From Chloroflexota bacterium (GTDB lineage: Bacteria; Chloroflexota; UBA11872; VXOZ01), in contig OZ244798.1 of assembly GCA_965220015.1 (NCBI GenBank), forward strand, positions 2,273,422 through 2,337,421: 64,000 nt of DNA. Reading direction: 5' to 3'. The notes beneath the pieces are model-generated. The model searched no databases, was not told where the DNA came from, and worked only from the letters and a program-made list of their open reading frames with translations. Made by a program: the position numbers and the translations under genes. This document shows, piece by piece, positions 3,927 to 24,648 of the stretch; position 1 is the stretch's first letter, and each line of letters begins with the position of its first letter.

Positions 3927-4284
3927 GCCGGAAGTCTGAACAAGAGCGGGTAGTGGTATTCACTTCCCGTTCTTGTCTTGGTGATGCGTCAATGTTCGTG
4001 GACTGATCTCACTCTTTAGTGGGTGTAGACCCTTGTCCAGGAATTTAAGGGCGCCAAAGCGCAGTGCCGACGGCAGTTCCTTCGCAACGGTCATGGTAAC
4101 GCTTGTAACTTTCAGATTTCTCAGTTGTAAGCGCAGATGCATCGGAGCATCCTGAGTTCAAGCAGGATCGTTGGGTCTGACGCCTAGACTGATTGGGATC
4201 GCCTCTGCTGCGGGCACCCCTCGTGCCGATCTCCCGCAACTCTCCATCAACGCACTCTCCCATGCCCCCTTTAGGACTCGCCCT

Positions 4285-5235
4285 ATGACTTCTCCCGTCT
4301 CTTCACTTCTCTGGCAAGATTGCAGTCAATTCCTGGATTATTGCGGGTATCTCAATCGTTCGCCGCAGACTGTGCGCACCTACAAGCAGATGCTCACAGA
4401 CCTCGTAAGCTACTGTGAAAAGACAAAGCGGCCGGTGGCGCGTGTTGAAGACCTCACGTTGCCAGTGATTACGGCCTTTCTTGCCTGGAAGCGCACCCAC
4501 ACGAGCGCATCGACACTGGCAAAATATGCCTCATGTGTACGTAGTATGCTCCGCTATTTCAGCTTGCATGAGGACCGCGACGTTCTTGTCTACGACAAGG
4601 TGCAACTGCCCAAGCTGCAGCGCCACGCGCCCCGCAACGTCCCTACCGCCGAAGACATCGTGCATCTCTTTCGCTCCATTCCACAGGATTCGCCGCAGGG
4701 CAGGCGTGACCGCGCGCTCGTGATGCTCTTCTTCTCCACGGGCCTGCGCTTGGCGGAACTCTGCGCGCTCAACCGCGCCGATCTACCCATCGAGCGCCTC
4801 GGTTCCGATCAACTCTTGCAGATCATCATCAGAGGTAAAGGCGACAAAGACCGGCCGGTTTTCTTACAACAGGGAGCACAACTGGCAGTCCGCGAGTACC
4901 TTGCGATACGTGAGGACGAGTTTCCCCCGCTCTTCATACGCTACCGGCCCGGTATGACGGCAGACGACGACGCCCAAGACAAGGAGAAGCGACTCTCGCC
5001 GCGCATGGTGCGCAAGATCATCACGCAGCATGCGCGGAGATCGGGCGTAGGGCATCTAGCGCCTCATGCGCTGCGGCACGGCTTTGCCGTTGACTTGCTG
5101 CGCAATGACGTAAACCTGCGCGTAATTCAAGAGCTTCTCGGCCATTCTAGCCTGTCTACAACCCAAATTTACACCCACCTAGTAAACCGGGCCTTGGCTG
5201 ATGCCGTCCGTCATCGGGTTGATCCCGTGGGGTAG
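4285..5235 (+). CDS. Tyrosine recombinase, phage-integrase family (XerC/XerD-like)
   Basis: C-terminal catalytic signature: LRLAEL (Arg), HALRHGFA (HxxR), LLGHSSLSTTQIYTH (His and Tyr nucleophile). SAM-like N-domain (FLDYCGYLNRSPQTVRTYKQML). The ORF is open from 4171, but the ATG at 4285 (MTSPVSSLLW) gives the usual length. Confidence 0.8.
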   Translation: MTSPVSSLLWQDCSQFLDYCGYLNRSPQTVRTYKQMLTDLVSYCEKTKRPVARVEDLTLPVITAFLAWKRTHTSASTLAKYASCVRSMLRYFSLHEDRDVLVYDKVQLPKLQRHAPRNVPTAEDIVHLFRSIPQDSPQGRRDRALVMLFFSTGLRLAELCALNRADLPIERLGSDQLLQIIIRGKGDKDRPVFLQQGAQLAVREYLAIREDEFPPLFIRYRPGMTADDDAQDKEKRLSPRMVRKIITQHARRSGVGHLAPHALRHGFAVDLLRNDVNLRVIQELLGHSSLSTTQIYTHLVNRALADAVRHRVDPVG

Positions 5236-10051: not shown

Positions 10052-10552
10052 TCAGACTCCTAAGATCGCTTCGTATGTTTTGCGGCTGTTCTTGCCAACC
10101 GCGCGCAATCGCCGCTGTCTTACCAGAGAGTCAATGGCTGCTTTCACCGCGGGTTCGCCGTGGCGGCGGAACTTGCCGGTGATCTTGCTTAGGGTGCGCG
10201 GGCGCACGCAGTAGGTCAACATCTCTCCTGCGAGCAAGTCGAAGGCAACAGGGAGGGGTGCGATCGGCCGCACCACCGTGTGGCCGAGATTGGCGTCCAC
10301 GCGCTCGCCGGGGATGAATTCCAGGCGTCCCTGCAGTGCTTGCTCAGCCAGGAAGATCCGCAGCCGCTTGCGCAACACGCCGCCGGCCCCGCTCGAGCCG
10401 TAACCGTGGATGACGTCAATAGCAGCGGCCGGACCGACGCCGGCGCCTCTAAGCCAATCATTGTAGAATTCGATAAAGTTTTGCCGGGCTTCATGCCAGG
10501 TCTGCTCGTGGAGGTCTAACTCATGGGCAGACCCAGTCTCATGGGTAATCAT
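10052..10552 (-). CDS. Smr (small MutS-related) domain protein with extra C-terminal domain
   Basis: ELDLHEQTWHEARQNF...AIDVIHGYGSSGAGGVLRKRLRIFL...NLGHTVV matches the LDLHG...IIHGKG...GG-G-T-V Smr pattern. The gene starts 66 nt downstream of 5S rRNA on the same strand. Confidence 0.65.
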   Translation of the reverse strand: MITHETGSAHELDLHEQTWHEARQNFIEFYNDWLRGAGVGPAAAIDVIHGYGSSGAGGVLRKRLRIFLAEQALQGRLEFIPGERVDANLGHTVVRPIAPLPVAFDLLAGEMLTYCVRPRTLSKITGKFRRHGEPAVKAAIDSLVRQRRLRAVGKNSRKTYEAILGV

Positions 10553-10737: not shown

Positions 10738-10937
10738 AATTCTGACAGATTTATGCGTGCGCCGCTCGCGCTGCCGCCGACCGGTAGTGGCCGGGGGCAT
10801 GAAACACTGAGACGACGCCTTATGTCAACGTGCCGCGGTGAACTATGCGCAGTCTATTGTTGGGCGCAAGCGGCACACCGAAAACGGCTGCCGCAGGCGA
10901 TCTCAAGCACTCGTGCATCGAGGCTTGCCCGACATTC

Positions 10938-10966
10938 GCAGAACTGCAATTTTGCCAATTAGAAGC
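10938..10966 (-). promoter_or_regulatory. 3' strand of the 23S rRNA flanking (processing) stem
   Basis: gcagaactgcaattttgccaattagaagc is complementary to 14737-14765 (gcttctaatcggcaaaattgaagttctgc) at 27 of 29 positions, plus one G-U. The pair brackets the mature 23S termini, as RNase III processing stems do. Confidence 0.7.
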
Positions 10967-11107
10967 GCGGTTAAGTCCTCGACCATTAGTACCGCTCGGC
11001 TGAACGCGTTACCGCGCTTACACCTGCGGCCTATCAACCAGATAATCTCTCTGGGGTCTTACCTCTCGCCGCAATGCAGCGAGAGTGGGGAACCTAATCT
11101 TGAGGCT

Positions 11108-11140
<33 letters not shown>

Positions 11141-11198
11141 ATTCCGCACGTAGCTACCCAGCAATGCCTCTGGCGAGACAACTGGTACACCAGCGGTG

Positions 11199-11230
<32 letters not shown>

Positions 11231-11258
11231 CTCCTCGCAAGTTCCCTGCGCCTGCGGA

Positions 11259-11305
<47 letters not shown>

Positions 11306-11308
11306 GCG

Positions 11309-11343
<35 letters not shown>

Positions 11344-11419
11344 GCTCCAGCCCCAGGATGCGCTGAGCCGACATCGAGGTGCCAAGCCTCCCCGTCGCTA
11401 TGAACGCTTGGGGGAGATA

Positions 11420-11450
<31 letters not shown>

Positions 11451-11612
11451 ATAATCCACGGCCCTTCCACTCGGAACCGTAGGGTCACTAAGCCCGACTT
11501 TCGTCCCTGCTCGACGTGTATGTCTCGCAGTCAAGCTCCCTTGTGCCTTTACACGCTTAGGCTGATTTCCATCCAGCCTGAGGGAACCTTTGGGCGCCTC
11601 CGTTATCTTTTG

Positions 11613-11648
<36 letters not shown>

Positions 11649-11906
11649 ATGTCCCCCTCCCGGATTACGGCAAGGGGTTAGAATAAGGATCGTAGAAGGG
11701 TGGTATTTCACCATTGCCTCCCCATCCCCCAAAAGGAATGGTTCACAGGCTCCCACCTATCCTACGCATCGACGGCCCCGATCCAATGCCAAGGTGCAGT
11801 AAAGCTCCACGGGGTCTTTTTGTCCTTCCGCAGGTAACCAGCATCTTCACTGGTACTTCAATTTCGCCGGGTCCCCTGCTGAGACAGTGCCCAACTCGTT
11901 ACGCCA

Positions 11907-11945
<39 letters not shown>

Positions 11946-12623
11946 CGGTTCAACGCGGCGTCTCCGCCGCGCGTCATCCCACTCTGTTTCCAGAGGGGCC
12001 GGACTTTCTCTTCACTCGTCCTATGTTCCTTTGCTCGGCGATGGCGCGGATCTCTGCAATACCCTCCGTTGTGAGGTGTGACCCTCGCTCCATGAGCAGC
12101 AATATACGTCGAAACTTGATGAAGTCCACACGCTTCTTGGAGCGCAGTTCGTGCTTCTCAAAGAACGGTAAGATCCGCTCCCTGAGGTGCTCTACACTGC
12201 GCACCCGATAGCACATGCGGTCCCCATGGTCCTGCCGTACAACTCCGCACCCGAAGAATTGCTTCAGTGCGTAGAGTAGTTGCACGTCACGTTCATGCTG
12301 CACCACAGTGAATTCAGGCAATACCTGAAATCCAGAGGTCATCTCTTGATGCGGATTGATATCGACGAAGAAGTAACCTTCTCCATCCACAAATCCGCAG
12401 ATCCATTGCGCCGTCAACCGTTGGGACGAGGCCGGACGTAAAGTCTCTGAGGGTTCTCTCGTGTCTGTCATGTGAGAGTCTTCCCTGCGGATTGTCCCCA
12501 TGTCCATCCGGCTTTTTACTGCCTACACCCAGTGCAAGACTGCACAGTGTGCAAACGAGTACCTGATGGCTGTGCGAGGAGTTTCCCGCATATGGTCCAG
12601 TTTTACTAAGGCTCGCGAATTGA
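11946..12623 (-). mobile_element. Group I intron in 23S rRNA (insertion after the U equivalent to about E. coli U1931, base of helix 69/71 region)
   Basis: The exon sequence ...AACTATAACCGTCCTAAGGT | AGCGAAATTCCTTGTCGGG... is contiguous in uninterrupted 23S genes but is separated here by 678 nt. The 5' exon ends in U. The intron contains GCCTTAG about 12 nt in, which can pair with exon CTAAGGT (P1 with a U-G wobble). The intron ends in G. Confidence 0.75.
11974..12507 (-). CDS. LAGLIDADG homing endonuclease (single-motif type), intron-encoded
   Basis: 177 aa with ICGFVDGEGYFFV (LAGLIDADG motif). It lies entirely inside the intron. The ORF runs to 28 nt from the 3' splice site, so its 3' part must overlap intron core helices. 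Confidence 0.85.
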   Translation of the reverse strand: MDMGTIRREDSHMTDTREPSETLRPASSQRLTAQWICGFVDGEGYFFVDINPHQEMTSGFQVLPEFTVVQHERDVQLLYALKQFFGCGVVRQDHGDRMCYRVRSVEHLRERILPFFEKHELRSKKRVDFIKFRRILLLMERGSHLTTEGIAEIRAIAEQRNIGRVKRKSGPSGNRVG

Positions 12624-14171
12624 ACCTTAGGACGGTTATAGTTACCGCCGCCGTTCACCGGGGCTTCCCGTCAGGGCGTGAACCCCTCTAGTTAACCTTC
12701 CGGCACCGGGCAGGCGTCAGCCCCCATACATCAGCTTTCGCTTTCGCGGAGACCTGTGTTTTTGTTAAACAGTCGGTTGGGCCTCTTCAGTGCCACCGCG
12801 ACTCGCTTCCCAGCGCAAGGCTGGTGCACGCGTCGCGGTACCCCTTCTCCCGAAGTTACGGGGTTAATTTGCCGAGTTCCTTAGCAGAGGGTCTCCCGCT
12901 CACCTTGGGACTTTTACCCCCGCCCACCAGTGTCGGTTTGCGGTACGGGCGCCCATATTCTGGCTAGAGGCTTTTCTTGCAGGCTGGGCTCAAAAGAATT
13001 GCCGTTGACTTGCGTCGCGGACTCTCCATCGCTTCTCGGCGTTTGGAATGGAGCAACGGATTTACCTATCGCTCCCGCCTACCAGCTTGGACGTGTATAG
13101 CCAAGAACACGCTCTTCCTACCCTGCCCGGTCCCCCCTTCGCTCATAACGAACCTGGGCGGTTCCGGAATATCAACCGGATGTCCATCGCCTACGCCATA
13201 TTGGCCTCGGCTTAGGCCCGACTAACCCTCAGTGGACGAACCTTCCTGAGGAAACCTTGGGCTTACGGTGAGCCGGATTCTCACCGGCTAACGCTACTCA
13301 TGCCGACATTCGCACTTCCCTGCGCTCCACCCGTCCTCACGGTCGAGCTTCACTGCACAGGGAACGCTCCCCTACCCAGCGGCCGCTCCACATGGGAGCG
13401 CCACTGCCCTAGCTTCGGTACCAGACTTGAGCCCCGTTAAATTTTCGGCGCCAGACGGCTTGACCAGTGAGCTGTTACGCACTCTTTAAAGGATGGCTGC
13501 TTCCAAGCCAACCTCCTGGCTGTCCGGGCTATCCGACATCCTTTCCCACTTAGTCTGAATTTAGGGACCTTAGCTGAGGGTCTGGGTTGTTTCCCTCTTG
13601 ACGATGAAGATTATCCCCCACCGTCCCACTCCCAGGTAACATGTATACGGCATTCGGAGTTTGGTTGGGTTTGGTAACCGTTTTGGCCCCTAGCCCATCC
13701 AGTGCTCTACCTCCGCAACACTCTAACCTGAGGCTGCACCGCAATGCATTTCGGGGAGAACCAGCTATATCTGAGTTCGATTGGCATTTCACCTCTAACC
13801 ACAGCTCATCCCCCAGTTTTGTAACACTGGTGGGTTCGGGCTTCCACGAGATATTACTCTCTCTTCACCCTGGCCATGGCTAGCTCACTCAGTTTCGGGT
13901 CTACTCCACGCGACTAAATCGCCCTGTTAGGACTCGCTTTCGCTACGGCTCCGGCCCTCCGACCTTAGCCTTGCCACGCATAGTAACTCGTCGGCTCATT
14001 CTCCAAAAGGCACGCCATCAGGCATTCCGTCTTATAATGCGGGCTTAGCGTTCCCGCGCGCCGCACCTTCCGAAGAAAGTACATTGCGCGGGCACGCCGT
14101 CCCAGCAAGACGGCATAGCCCTCTGACTGCTTGTAAGCGTACGATTTCAGGTTCTATTTCACTCCCCTCCC

Positions 14172-14202
<31 letters not shown>

Positions 14203-14736
14203 CGTTCACTATCGGTCGCCAAAGGTGTTTAGCCTTGGGAAGTGGGCTCCCCAGTTTCCCACAGGGTTACACGTGTCCCGTGGTACTCAGGCACAACAAC
14301 GAGAGAGCTCTGGTTTTCGTGTACGGGGCTGTCACCCTCTCTGGCGGGCCATTCCAGGACCTTCTACTAACCACAGCTTTTCTCCAACTCTCTAAGCCCC
14401 TTGCAGAGGACTCTATTGCGGCCTACAACCCTCACACTGCAACGGCTGCAACCTATCACACAGCGTGAGTTTGGGCTGTTCCCCTTTCGCTCGCCACTAC
14501 TCAGGGAATAATCTCTTCTCCTCGCCTTACTAAGATGATTCAGTTCAGGCGGTTCCCTCCACATGCCTATGAATTCAGCATGCGGTGACGAGGCATCACC
14601 CTCGCCGGGTTTCCCCATTCGGGTACCTGCGGATCAAAATCTGCTGACGACTCCCCGCAGCTTTTCGCAGTCAACCGCGCCCTTCTTCGGCCTTTGGCAC
14701 CAAGGCATCCGTCGTACGCCCTTAGTAACTTAGCCT

Positions 14737-14959: not shown

Positions 14960-16861
14960 CTACTCACTGGGCGGTGTTGCCTGGCCGAAATTTATTAGGC
15001 TCCAGCAAATTGCGGCGCCGTCTGTGCGGAGACCGCAGGTATGGCCGGAGCCGATGCTGAGAGTAGTGAAGCGTTCGCCTGCCGGCGGCAGTCCAACTGC
15101 AATGCCCCAGCAGATAGGCGTGCCGTCCGGGCGGAGGGCGCACGAATGGCCTGTGCCGCTGTAAATGGCGGTAAAGCGTTCCCCTGCCGGCGGCGTGACA
15201 TCGCCAAACTCCAAGTTGCCCCAGCAGGCGGGGGCGCCATCTTGACGTAGCGCGCAGGTATGCGTGAAGCCCGCACTCAGAGTTGTGAATTGCTCGCTTG
15301 CCGGTGGTGGCGTTCCCTCCACCAAGCCCCAGCACAGCGGCCTGCCATCTTCACGGAGCGCGCAAACGTGGAACGCACCATTGGCAATGGCCGTAAAGCG
15401 CTGACCTGCCGGCGGCGGGCCCAAGTCATCGGCATCGCTGCCCCAGCACAATGGCGTCCCGTCCGAAAGCAGTCCGCAAGTGTGAAACTGTCCGCTGCTG
15501 ATGGCAGAAAATCGCTCGCCCTGCGGCGGCGGCACTCCGTCTTGGTTGCCCCAGCAGGAGAGCGTCCCATCCGCCCGCAGCCCGCAGGCCTGCAGCCAGT
15601 TAGTCGCGATCGCTGTGAAGCGCTCGTCCTCCGGCGGCGATGCCCGGCCGAACTCGTCACTACCCCAGCAGACAGGAGATCCGTTCTCACGCAGCGCGCA
15701 CGTGTATCCGGCATTACTGCTTATGGTGGAGAAGCGTTCATCTGCCGGCGGCGATTCATCCAGGCCCCAGCAAACAGGAATGCCATCGGTGCTGAGCGCG
15801 CACGTGTGCCTGATGCCACTACTAATGGCGGTGAAGGTCTCGCCCGGTGGCGGCGATGCCACGCCACCGGCGTCCTCCCCCCAACAGACGGCGGTCCCGT
15901 CCGTGCGGATTGCGCACGTGTGCGTGGCGCCGCTGCTGATTGCGCTAAACGTCTCGCCCTGTGGCGGCGATGCCTTGCCTTCGGATTGGCCGCCCCAGCA
16001 CACGGCTTTCCCGTCTGTGCGCAGCCCGCACGCGTGCGTAATGCCGGAACTAATGGAAGTGAAACGTTCGCCCTCCGGCGGAGTCGTCTGGTCGAACAGA
16101 TCAAAGCCCCAGCACACGGCTTTCCCGTCCATACGGAGCGCGCAGGTAAGGAAACTGCCGCTGCTGATTGCGCTGAATCGCTCGCCTTCCGGGGGCGACG
16201 CTTGACCGGCATAGTCAACGCCCCAGCACACGGCTGAGCCGTTCTTACGCAGCGCACAGGTATGGTCATTGCCACTGCTGATTGAGACGAACATCTCGCC
16301 CGCCGGCGGTGAGGACTGGCCCAATTGGTTATCACCCCAGCATACGGCCGTCCCATCCGCGCGGAGCGCGCAGGTGTGGGAATTGCCACTGCTGATGGCG
16401 ATGAAGGTTTCGCCAACCAGTGGCGTGGATTGGCCGTACTCGTCGTGACCCCAGCAGACAGGCGTGCCGTCGGCCCGCAGCGCACATGTGTGCAGATTGC
16501 CGCTGCTGATGGCAATGAAGCCTTGAAGTGCCGTCTTTGCGGGTTCAGCCGAGGGCGTTCGCGTACTTGTCGGCAGCGGCGCCGCGGTCGCTGTGGGAGC
16601 CGGTGTCGCTGTTGCTGCCTGCTCGGCACGAGGTGTGGGCGCATCGGTTGCTAGCGGCGGGCCGGTCGAAACTTGCCGCTCGGCGGCGCATGCCGTCAGC
16701 AAAGCCACAGCTAAAAAACAAAACAACCCTAACCACGTAGTCCGGCGTGCAGAATTTAGCGGGGCAAGCGCGGCGCTGCTTGCGATTCGCACTGCAAACA
16801 CCTTGTACTTTCGTACCGAGACATTTCTACCTCCAATCGCAATATTAACACACTCTTGCAC
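14960..16861 (-). CDS. Secreted RCC1-like repeat (beta-propeller) protein, about 14 short repeats
   Basis: 14 repeats of about 37-38 aa: F(T/S)AISSG..HTCALR.DG..VCWG.....Q..PP.GE. N-terminal hydrophobic signal with LLTACAA lipobox-like site and a Pro/Ala/Thr linker. Confidence 0.8.
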   Translation of the reverse strand: MQECVNIAIGGRNVSVRKYKVFAVRIASSAALAPLNSARRTTWLGLFCFLAVALLTACAAERQVSTGPPLATDAPTPRAEQAATATPAPTATAAPLPTSTRTPSAEPAKTALQGFIAISSGNLHTCALRADGTPVCWGHDEYGQSTPLVGETFIAISSGNSHTCALRADGTAVCWGDNQLGQSSPPAGEMFVSISSGNDHTCALRKNGSAVCWGVDYAGQASPPEGERFSAISSGSFLTCALRMDGKAVCWGFDLFDQTTPPEGERFTSISSGITHACGLRTDGKAVCWGGQSEGKASPPQGETFSAISSGATHTCAIRTDGTAVCWGEDAGGVASPPPGETFTAISSGIRHTCALSTDGIPVCWGLDESPPADERFSTISSNAGYTCALRENGSPVCWGSDEFGRASPPEDERFTAIATNWLQACGLRADGTLSCWGNQDGVPPPQGERFSAISSGQFHTCGLLSDGTPLCWGSDADDLGPPPAGQRFTAIANGAFHVCALREDGRPLCWGLVEGTPPPASEQFTTLSAGFTHTCALRQDGAPACWGNLEFGDVTPPAGERFTAIYSGTGHSCALRPDGTPICWGIAVGLPPAGERFTTLSIGSGHTCGLRTDGAAICWSLINFGQATPPSE

Positions 16862-24572: not shown

Positions 24573-24648
24573 TGGTGGACCCGATCGGGGTCGAACCGAC
24601 GACCTCGTGAATGCCATTCACGCGCTCTCCCAACTGAGCTACGGGCCC
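24573..24648 (-). tRNA. tRNA-Ala (anticodon GGC), CCA encoded
   Basis: The reverse complement GGGCCCGTAGCTCAGTTGGGAGAGCGCGTGAATGGCATTCACGAGGTCGTCGGTTCGACCCCGATCGGGTCCACCA folds as a cloverleaf. Anticodon loop is AT-GGC-AT. The G3:U70 alanine identity pair is present. Confidence 0.9.

Follow-up and report, generated by a model that had tools for sequence, protein, structure and literature searches.

A probable mobile group I intron of the L1931 lineage, with a LAGLIDADG homing endonuclease gene, in the 23S rRNA gene of an uncultured Chloroflexota bacterium

The window examined in this study, i.e., the whole 64,000-nucleotide (nt) stretch of contig OZ244798.1 from an uncultured Chloroflexota bacterium, contains a single 23S ribosomal RNA (rRNA) gene, which lies on the minus strand at positions 10967-14735 (Rfam RF02541, 2654 bits, model positions 1-2925). 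Our analysis indicates that this gene is very probably interrupted by a mobile group I intron that belongs to the L1931 lineage and carries the gene of a LAGLIDADG homing endonuclease. The intron occupies 678 nt at positions 11946-12623 and is inserted after Escherichia coli U1931 (site L1931), so that the 23S gene is 3769 nt long with the intron and 3091 nt long without it. Chance is ruled out as the source of the signals of the intron and its open reading frame (ORF), as the Rfam group I model RF00028 matched with an E value of 4.6e-11 for the whole window and the Pfam family LAGLIDADG_1 (PF00961) with one of 8.9e-23. The element adds one more member, from Chloroflexota, to a kind that is already known and is fairly widespread, nothing about it being new in kind. 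Unless stated otherwise, all features below lie on the minus strand and positions are those of the window; in the numbering of the intron, nt 1 is position 12623 and nt 678, the terminal G, is position 11946.

The insertion site was located by reading the exons and by alignment to an uninterrupted gene. In the sense of the rRNA, the 5' exon reads ...AACUAUAACCGUCCUAAGGU (longer: ...GGCGGUAACUAUAACCGUCCUAAGGU) with its last base at 12624, the intron begins with UCAAUUCGCGAGCCUUAG and ends with ...AACCG, and the 3' exon, AGCGAAAUUCCUUGUCGGG... (also read as AGCGAAAUUCCUUGUCGGGUAAGUUCCGACC), has its first base at 11945. In rrlB of E. coli MG1655, the string CCTAAGGTAGCGAAATTCC is uninterrupted, the T of its GGT is position 1931, and CCTAAGGT ends at U1931. 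A motif-free global MAFFT alignment of the window 23S gene to rrlB also placed a single 678-nt insertion, 12623-11946, after E. coli 1931. This position falls in the strand that joins helix 69 to helix 71, within the functional centre of the 50S subunit.

To obtain comparative support, we used a set of related loci collected by a protein-guided scan in which each GTDB species was represented by one genome and which yielded at least 529 confirmed relatives of the ORF; the best 80 of these at least 529, together with two loci from exact-protein look-ups, constitute the 82 loci (designated by L numbers) considered below. The L1931 junction was identical in 79 of them. A single insertion of 616-841 nt with the same exon words and the same junction was present in 70, all ending in G and nearly all with GCCUUAG, and nine had the L1931 insertion plus others at L1917 and/or L1951, the other three loci being cut by a contig end or having a variant exon word. 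For covariation, 71 full-length introns, including that of the window, were aligned by MAFFT, the alignment not being fitted to structure.

The RF00028 match scored 54.5 bits against a gathering score of 50 and spanned 12656-11980, extending 33 nt into the exon and leaving out the last 34 nt of the intron. The overrun results from a mis-assignment of the P1 of the model to exon helix 69, the true P1 being taken as P2, and the P1-P10 structure was assigned by hand. In P1, the 5' exon strand CUAAGGU (12624-12630) pairs with the internal guide GCCUUAG (12606-12612, nt 12-18), all seven pairs being standard in 71 of 71 introns and the U1931·G12 wobble being invariant. The intron strand of P10, UUCGC (12615-12619, nt 5-9), forms five base pairs (bp) with GCGAA of the 3' exon (11944-11940), for which 72% of cells are standard across the family. 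P2 is absent, with 5 nt (UAAAA) between P1 and P3. The two strands of P3, CUGGAC (12595-12600, nt 24-29) and GUCCGG (12432-12437, nt 187-192), are paired in 99.8% of cells, and the covariation count gave double compensatory changes in five of the six pairs. The P4-P6 domain (12451-12590), delimited by the RF00028 alignment and covariation, consists of P4 (12590-12585/12491-12486, nt 34-39/133-138) and P5 (12580-12576/12499-12495, nt 44-48/125-129), both 100% paired, an extended P5a/b arm (12575-12500) with the A-rich stretch AGUAAAAAG at 12520-12512 and five compensatory pairs in P5a, and P6 (12485-12483/12453-12451) with P6a (12478-12474/12460-12456, five pairs with compensatory changes), P6/P6a together being nt 139-173 and their loop L6 containing an in-frame ATG at 12471.

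In P7, the 5' strand GAGACUUU (12440-12447; paired nt 177 and 179-184) and the 3' strand AAAGUCC (12001-12007, nt 617-623) pair with a bulged A178 between G177-C623 and G179-C622, and the core pairs G177-C623, G179-C622, A180-U621, and C181-G620 are invariant in all 71 introns. The guanosine-binding pair of the Tetrahymena intron is G264-C311, and G179-C622 may, by analogy, hold the corresponding position. P8 is formed by CUCGUCC (12424-12430, nt 194-200) and GGACGAG (12015-12021, nt 603-609) in 7 bp, with compensatory changes in six of seven pairs, where the alignment is less certain; its loop, L8, holds the body of the endonuclease gene, and its 3' strand also codes for the ORF residues G-R-V. 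The GG of P9.0 (12000-11999, nt 624-625) pairs with CC at 11948-11947 (nt 676-677) in 97.9% of cells and covaries as GG/CC, AG/CU, and GA/UC. P9 (11998-11978, nt 626-646) is a hairpin capped by a GAAA loop, its pairing being 90-96% and including compensatory changes. It is followed by P9.1 (11953-11972), an extra 8-bp hairpin with a GAGA loop that is present in the window, L001, and L005 only and is missing from L002, L004, and the remaining family members in the intron alignment; P9 and P9.1 together fold with -29.8 kcal/mol (z = -5.0). The intron closes with the CC of P9.0 and the terminal guanosine (omega-G, 11946) at 11946-11948, and G is likewise the last base of each of the 70 related introns that have simple flanks.

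Over this whole structure, standard pairs occupied 92.3% of cells in the 71 introns, compared with 26-52% when the 3' partners were slid by one to three columns, and 38 of 68 pairs had changed on both sides. The covarying helices were P3, P5, P5a, P6a, P8, P9, and P9.0, and P1, P4, and the P7 core were invariant and hence neutral on those pairings. With P10 left out, 93.9% of cells were paired, compared with 86.1 ± 0.25% in 500 within-column shuffles, none of which reached the observed value; as the sequences are related, this count is not to be read as a probability, and the slid-register control, which keeps the relatedness, gave the same answer. At ribozyme columns conserved to at least 95% outside its own clade, the window intron agreed with the family at 124 of 127, and the three deviating columns comprise the two sides of a compensatory P3 pair, G27-C189, and a helix 69 variant of the exon. 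Thus, nothing in these comparisons suggests decay of the ribozyme in the window intron.

These results bear out much of a reading made previously by a model from the letters of the DNA (the sequence-only reading). The 678-nt split that it had described was right in coordinates and length by both exon reading and the alignment to rrlB, and its placement needs to be corrected in strand, the feature being on the minus strand. The site, which it had put at about E. coli U1931, proved to be exactly this by the rrlB string and the global alignment, with an exon junction that is contiguous in rrlB. The hallmarks that it had pointed out, namely, a 5' exon ending in U, a guide GCCTTAG pairing with CTAAGGT through a U·G wobble, and an intron ending in G, were all confirmed. 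Its assignment to the group I introns holds by the RF00028 score above the gathering score and the covariation-supported fold, in which a complete core from P1 to P10, including the P3/P7 pseudoknot, could be modelled by hand with comparative support from 71 introns.

The longest ORF in the intron codes for 177 amino acids (aa) and extends over 11974-12507, with its stop codon TGA at 11976-11974. Pfam LAGLIDADG_1 gave one match at residues 36-135, and the LAGLIDADG motif, ICGFVDGEG, is at residues 36-44 (12376-12402). In 26 homologs, G38, F39, V40, D41, G42, E43, and G44 of this single motif were invariant. The catalytic acidic residue of I-CreI is D20, and E43 may, by analogy, be the catalytic acidic position here. 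The best match among solved structures by sequence was 5gkk_A (E = 4.9e-48), with ORF residue 31 aligned to chain residue 3. The AlphaFold2 model, built with the 26 homologs, has a core of about residues 31-163 with a predicted local distance difference test (pLDDT) score above 90 and the order alpha-beta-beta-alpha-beta-beta-alpha (helices 33-43, 72-85, and 105-118; strands 44-52, 60-71, 89-92, and 97-102); this folded endonuclease domain corresponds to 12019-12417. Residues 1-28 and 164-177 had pLDDT below 50 and are predicted to be disordered. In a Foldseek search of the model, 5gkk_A was again at the top, with a probability of 1.00, 57% identity, and a root-mean-square deviation (rmsd) of 1.3 Å, its PDB title, as returned by Foldseek, being 'Crystal structure of a homing endonuclease, I-TnaI'; the next matches were halves of the monomeric enzymes I-SmaMI, I-OnuI, and I-LtrI.

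The ratio of nonsynonymous to synonymous substitution rates (dN/dS) in the endonuclease domain was 0.08-0.27, with dS of up to about 0.75, among the window, L001, L002, L004, and L005, and none of 71 relatives had a stop codon or frameshift in the domain. These two results indicate that the endonuclease gene is maintained by selection. A look-up of the exact 177-aa sequence returned no record, and two proteins that are 98% (P0001) and 92% (P0005) identical to the ORF were found on ENA metagenome contigs; close relatives are present in the ENA samples of ERZ19489075 and ERZ28763718.

The coding sequence of the ORF overlaps the ribozyme. At its 3' end, it crosses P8-3', the joining segment J8/7, P7-3', P9.0, and P9, and its UGA is separated from the 3' splice site by 28 nt. 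For 53 of the 71 relatives, the stop is UAA or UAG within J8/7, where the window clade has GAA and 13 more residues. Regarding the 5' end, the candidate start codons are ATG at 12507, ATG at 12501, ATG at 12471 in L6, which would give 165 aa, and TTG at 12417 in L8, which would give 147 aa. An ATG is present in L8, 18 nt ahead of a conserved Trp codon, in 30 of 71 relatives; for 39 of 71, the window among them, the closest ATG in frame is situated in L6 or upstream of it. As the L8 ATG and the J8/7 stop are missing, translation of the ORF must pass through structured ribozyme RNA, and as the only in-frame ATGs are upstream of P6-3', P7, P3-3', and P8, the 5' end of the ORF probably reads core helices too. 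The TTG at 12417 aligns with residue 3 of I-TnaI, and the two candidates, this TTG and the L6 ATG, are indistinguishable by sequence alone; in the lineage of the window, the L6 ATG would be the most likely start. Translation would then run through P6-3', J6/7, P7, P3-3', and P8-5' to the body of the gene in L8 and on through P8-3', J8/7, P7-3', P9.0, and P9. The segment EPSETLR, which is 'conserved' among the called proteins, is coded by J6/7-P7; disorder is predicted for two parts of the protein, namely, this segment and the C-terminal tail. This fits a view in which both may be shaped by constraint on the RNA rather than by the function of the protein.

For this gene, too, the sequence-only reading stands in the main. 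It had recognized a 177-aa ORF with a single LAGLIDADG motif (GFVDGEGYF), now supported by the Pfam match, the match to 5gkk, and the AlphaFold2 fold, and had placed its stop 28 nt before the 3' splice site, in agreement with the TGA at 11976-11974. The overlap of coding sequence and core, which it had deduced from this distance, is real and larger than it had stated, with the 5' end probably in the core as well.

From these features, the following course of events can be proposed. The transcript would fold into the P1-P10 ribozyme, in which an exogenous guanosine would dock in P7 and attack the phosphate after U1931, which the U·G wobble would keep in P1. P9.0 would then deliver the terminal G to the same pocket, P10 would align the 3' exon, and the exons would be ligated. 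The ligated junction would read ...CCUAAGGU joined to AGCGAAAUU..., and ligation would restore a continuous strand between helices 69 and 71. The protein, having a single LAGLIDADG motif, should act as a homodimer, and it would cut intron-less 23S genes near CCUAAGGU/AGCGAAAUUCC, the repair of which would copy the intron in. It may also aid the folding of its own intron as a maturase, by analogy with I-TnaI.

Several points weigh against an active mobile intron. The L1931 intron of Simkania negevensis is reportedly unspliced, as the title of Everett et al. 1999 has it ('An unspliced group I intron in 23S rRNA...'). The two-fold symmetry of the homing site is at most 5 of 11 symmetric positions at any centre, which is unusual for a homodimeric enzyme, if not disqualifying. 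Both the L8 ATG of 30 of the 71 relatives and the J8/7 stop of 53 of them are missing in the window, and inspection of the region ahead of each candidate start revealed no Shine-Dalgarno-like sequence. With the Simkania intron as a precedent at the same site, it could be supposed that the window intron is structurally intact but unremoved, so that the mature 23S rRNA keeps the 678-nt insertion and the ribosome tolerates it. We regard this as quite improbable, as the core, P9.0, P10, and terminal G are conserved and covarying in the 71 introns, which come from many phyla, a pattern expected only when catalysis is under selection, and as the site, between helices 69 and 71, belongs to the functional centre of the 50S subunit. 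The homologous introns of Thermotoga, moreover, are reportedly 'active self-splicing', in the wording of the title of Nesbø & Doolittle 2003. A classical intervening sequence, which RNase III would excise without ligation to leave the 23S rRNA in two pieces, might also be considered, given that no other kind of insertion is as common in bacterial 23S genes and that the same gene also has extra hairpins in two other places, at about positions 275 and 539 of E. coli. However, a classical intervening sequence is a simple extended hairpin that sits at the tip of a helix, whereas the element of the window is in a joining strand and has a covariation-backed group I core, the U·G and guide pairing, a terminal G, and a homing endonuclease gene. 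Since the element has a complete group I core together with the gene of an endonuclease, this fragmentation reading was rejected and can hardly be correct.

A further alternative accepts splicing and concerns the protein, which would be no DNA endonuclease but would be kept as a maturase or be decaying, in an intron that is fixed and vertically inherited. In its favor, all five related Chloroflexota genomes, with 23S exons 97.4-99.8% identical, have the intron at the same site, the canonical L8 start and J8/7 stop have been lost in the window clade, and maturase-like activity is known for the protein of the 23S intron of Thermotoga neapolitana (Mo et al, 2011, summarised in PMC3984707), I-TnaI appearing by its name to be that protein. 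Also, purifying selection that persists after fixation (dN/dS of 0.08-0.27) fits a role useful to the intron or the host. Nevertheless, the catalytic motif GFVDGEG is intact and invariant, an active, re-invading endonuclease would equally show purifying selection, and the sequence offers nothing to separate endonuclease from maturase activity; on balance, we consider the loss of endonuclease function unlikely. A related proposal, somewhat less doubtful, concerns why the protein has been retained. The life-cycle model of homing endonucleases predicts decay after fixation (PMC1995217), and from the sequence comparisons, the intron looks fixed and vertically inherited in the Chloroflexota clade. 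The strong purifying selection despite apparent fixation could, therefore, tentatively be ascribed to retention of the protein for a function useful to the intron or the host, i.e., as a maturase like I-TnaI.

The distribution of the probable mobile intron was traced in the genomes nearest to that of the window and in the wider family of its enzyme. Among the best 80 of the at least 529 relatives, the nearest were the complete chromosomes OZ244922.1 and OZ242329.1 ('MAG: Chloroflexota bacterium'), with 93% and 92% aa identity, respectively, and 23S exons 97.4-98.8% identical to those of the window. The 23S exons of L001, an ENA metagenome contig, were 98.8-99.8% identical. The intron was at the same site in all five members of the clade, i.e., the window, L001, L002, L004, and L005. 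Each of the two chromosomes had one locus among the best 80, where an equally similar second copy would rank, so that there appears to be one endonuclease-bearing rrl copy per chromosome. A 108-nt clade-specific probe for the exon-exon (intron-less) junction had no match in JGI metagenome contigs, and as a control probe for the intron junction also had none, the clade is absent from that collection and this negative says nothing of intron-less alleles.

The relatives of the enzyme, in at least 529 species-representative genomes, spread over many phyla, including Acidobacteriota, Chloroflexota, Chlamydiota, several proteobacterial classes, Myxococcota, Actinomycetota, Nitrospirota, Bdellovibrionota, and others, with members of the Candidate Phyla Radiation (CPR; L046 and L074) and of Eremiobacterota ('Xenobia'; L061) among them. 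The comparison thus suggests that the family of L1931 introns and enzymes has hosts in over a dozen phyla outside CPR, amounting to hundreds of species, far wider than the 'a few species' of the literature. Only in this breadth outside CPR do the observations go a little further than the literature, extending rather than overturning published work. The remark of the sequence-only reading that bacterial rRNA introns are rare is, accordingly, true for cultured bacteria but not for this family, which is also common in CPR (PMC11270868).

The loci with more than one insertion were L008, L016, L038, L046, L048, L056, L060, L073, and L074, the neighboring insertions being 256-720 nt at L1917 and 274-912 nt at L1951. 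L060 has insertions at L1917, L1931, and L1951, with intervening exons of only 14 and 20 nt. The arrangement resembles those of Coxiella and Synechococcus C9, and the short extra insertions of about 260-320 nt would be ORF-less. The longest intron with simple flanks, 841 nt in L007 (Anaerolineae, 2149-2989), owes its length to about 210 nt inserted in L6. The exon variant in helix 69, around 12633 and 12646, reads GGCGG...AACCGUCC in place of GGCCG...AACGGUCC; it is common to the window, L001, L002, L004, L005, L026, and L045 and constitutes a compensatory swap of one stem base pair near the homing site.

The 23S gene of the window has two other insertions relative to rrlB. One, of 80 nt at 14387-14466, after about E. 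coli position 275, folds like shuffled sequence (z = -1.2). The other, of 86 nt at 14035-14120, after about position 539 in the region of helix 25, folds as an extended hairpin of very high stability (-50.5 kcal/mol, z = -4.3) and resembles a helix expansion or a classical intervening sequence. ORFs of 128-200 aa are found wholly within the 23S gene at 11154-11756 (minus strand), 11714-12211 (plus strand), and 10838-11224 (plus strand), and public gene calls in L001 (6791-7348) and L002 (6908-7465) include a 185-aa 'gene' with no Pfam match inside the 23S gene just downstream of the endonuclease gene. These long ORFs within the 23S genes, the 185-aa calls included, are almost certainly spurious calls on rRNA.

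The 23S gene is followed by a 5S rRNA gene at 10735-10620 (Rfam), and the Rfam scan found no 16S rRNA gene in the 64-kb window, in which the 23S-5S pair is thus unlinked to 16S. Directly upstream of the 23S gene, on the same strand, is the gene of an RCC1-repeat protein (14960-16861), and an Smr-domain gene (10052-10552) comes next after the 5S gene. The neighborhood of the 23S-5S pair common to the window, L001, and L002 has VWA-domain genes upstream and genes of Smr-domain, RNase_H_2-family, solute-binding, and dienelactone hydrolase proteins downstream. A tyrosine recombinase gene (4171-5235, plus strand; Phage_integrase family, E = 5e-32) is about 5 kb downstream of the 5S gene, and tRNA-Ala(GGC) at 24573-24648 (minus strand) is the sole tRNA gene of the window.

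This study has consequences for annotation, in that the 23S gene should be marked as interrupted, with the '177-aa hypothetical protein' renamed as a homing endonuclease encoded by the intron and the ORFs called within the rRNA gene treated as artefacts. Surveys, primers, and phylogenies of this lineage that are based on rRNA need the intron to be removed. The window adds a Chloroflexota lineage to the hosts of L1931 introns and represents a clean case of RNA serving both as ribozyme core and as coding sequence, with core-coded peptide tails that are predicted to be disordered. The at least 529 genomes, some with two or three introns at L1917, L1931, and L1951, suggest that rRNA introns outside CPR are under-reported, a point that rests on the collections searched and not on the window.

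With respect to known systems, the window intron has the features of the L1931 lineage, i.e., the 1931/1932 site, no P2, an extended P5 arm, and the bulged A of P7. The introns at this site described by Haugen et al. 2007 (PMC1995217) carry single-motif LAGLIDADG genes and are 654-700 nt long with ORFs of 143-167 aa, namely, 654 nt and 143 aa in Simkania, 666-675 nt and 162-167 aa in Synechococcus, and 698-700 nt and 162 aa in three Thermotoga species. The precedents that the sequence-only reading had named for the site, Thermotoga, Simkania, and organelles, are all listed there. In the same study, the bacterial L1931 introns are IC1-like, without P2 and with a complex P5, and ORFs reaching into the core were noted for the cyanobacterial introns (PMC1995217).

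The closest known system is that of Thermotoga, whose L1931 introns, with I-TnaI (PDB 5GKK), share the site, a similar size, and a protein 57% identical with an rmsd of 1.3 Å; as considered above, I-TnaI appears to be the T. neapolitana 23S intron protein by its name and PMC3984707. The hosts differ, being Thermotogae and Chloroflexota, respectively, and splicing and maturase activity have been shown for the Thermotoga intron, whereas both are predictions for the window intron. By the present comparisons, the clade of the window is set apart, unlike the family norm, by the loss of the usual L8 start and J8/7 stop codons, with P9.1 additionally in the window, L001, and L005. Simkania negevensis, Synechococcus lividus C1, and Synechococcus sp. 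C9 have introns at the same site with no P2, a complex P5 arm, and a single-motif ORF, a likeness drawn from their descriptions, and the Simkania intron differs in being reported as unspliced. In WPS-2 (CARN1), a different phylum, a 707-nt intron between 1931 and 1932 of the 23S rRNA has a LAGLIDADG enzyme most like that of Thermotoga, in a published description without structural analysis (PMC4192840).

LAGLIDADG_1 genes occur frequently at position 1931 in CPR bacteria, and the 691-nt, group-I-like insertion at site 23IS7 has a central single-domain LAGLIDADG_1 ORF, the product of which, I-ShaI, cuts DNA at its insertion site and assembles into homodimers (PMC11270868). We infer that 23IS7 is position 1931 from how the lists in that paper are ordered. 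I-ShaI is from a Shapirobacteria (CPR) genome and is likened to the window enzyme by description. In another domain of life, archaeal LSU/1931 introns share the site and belong to subgroup IB4, some being about 680-760 nt long, which is consistent with an ORF (Nawrocki, Jones & Eddy 2018, PMC6125680). The label of the L1931 lineage thus differs between IB4 (Nawrocki 2018) and 'IC1-like without P2' (Haugen 2007), and the window intron is placed in this lineage by its site and its structural features.

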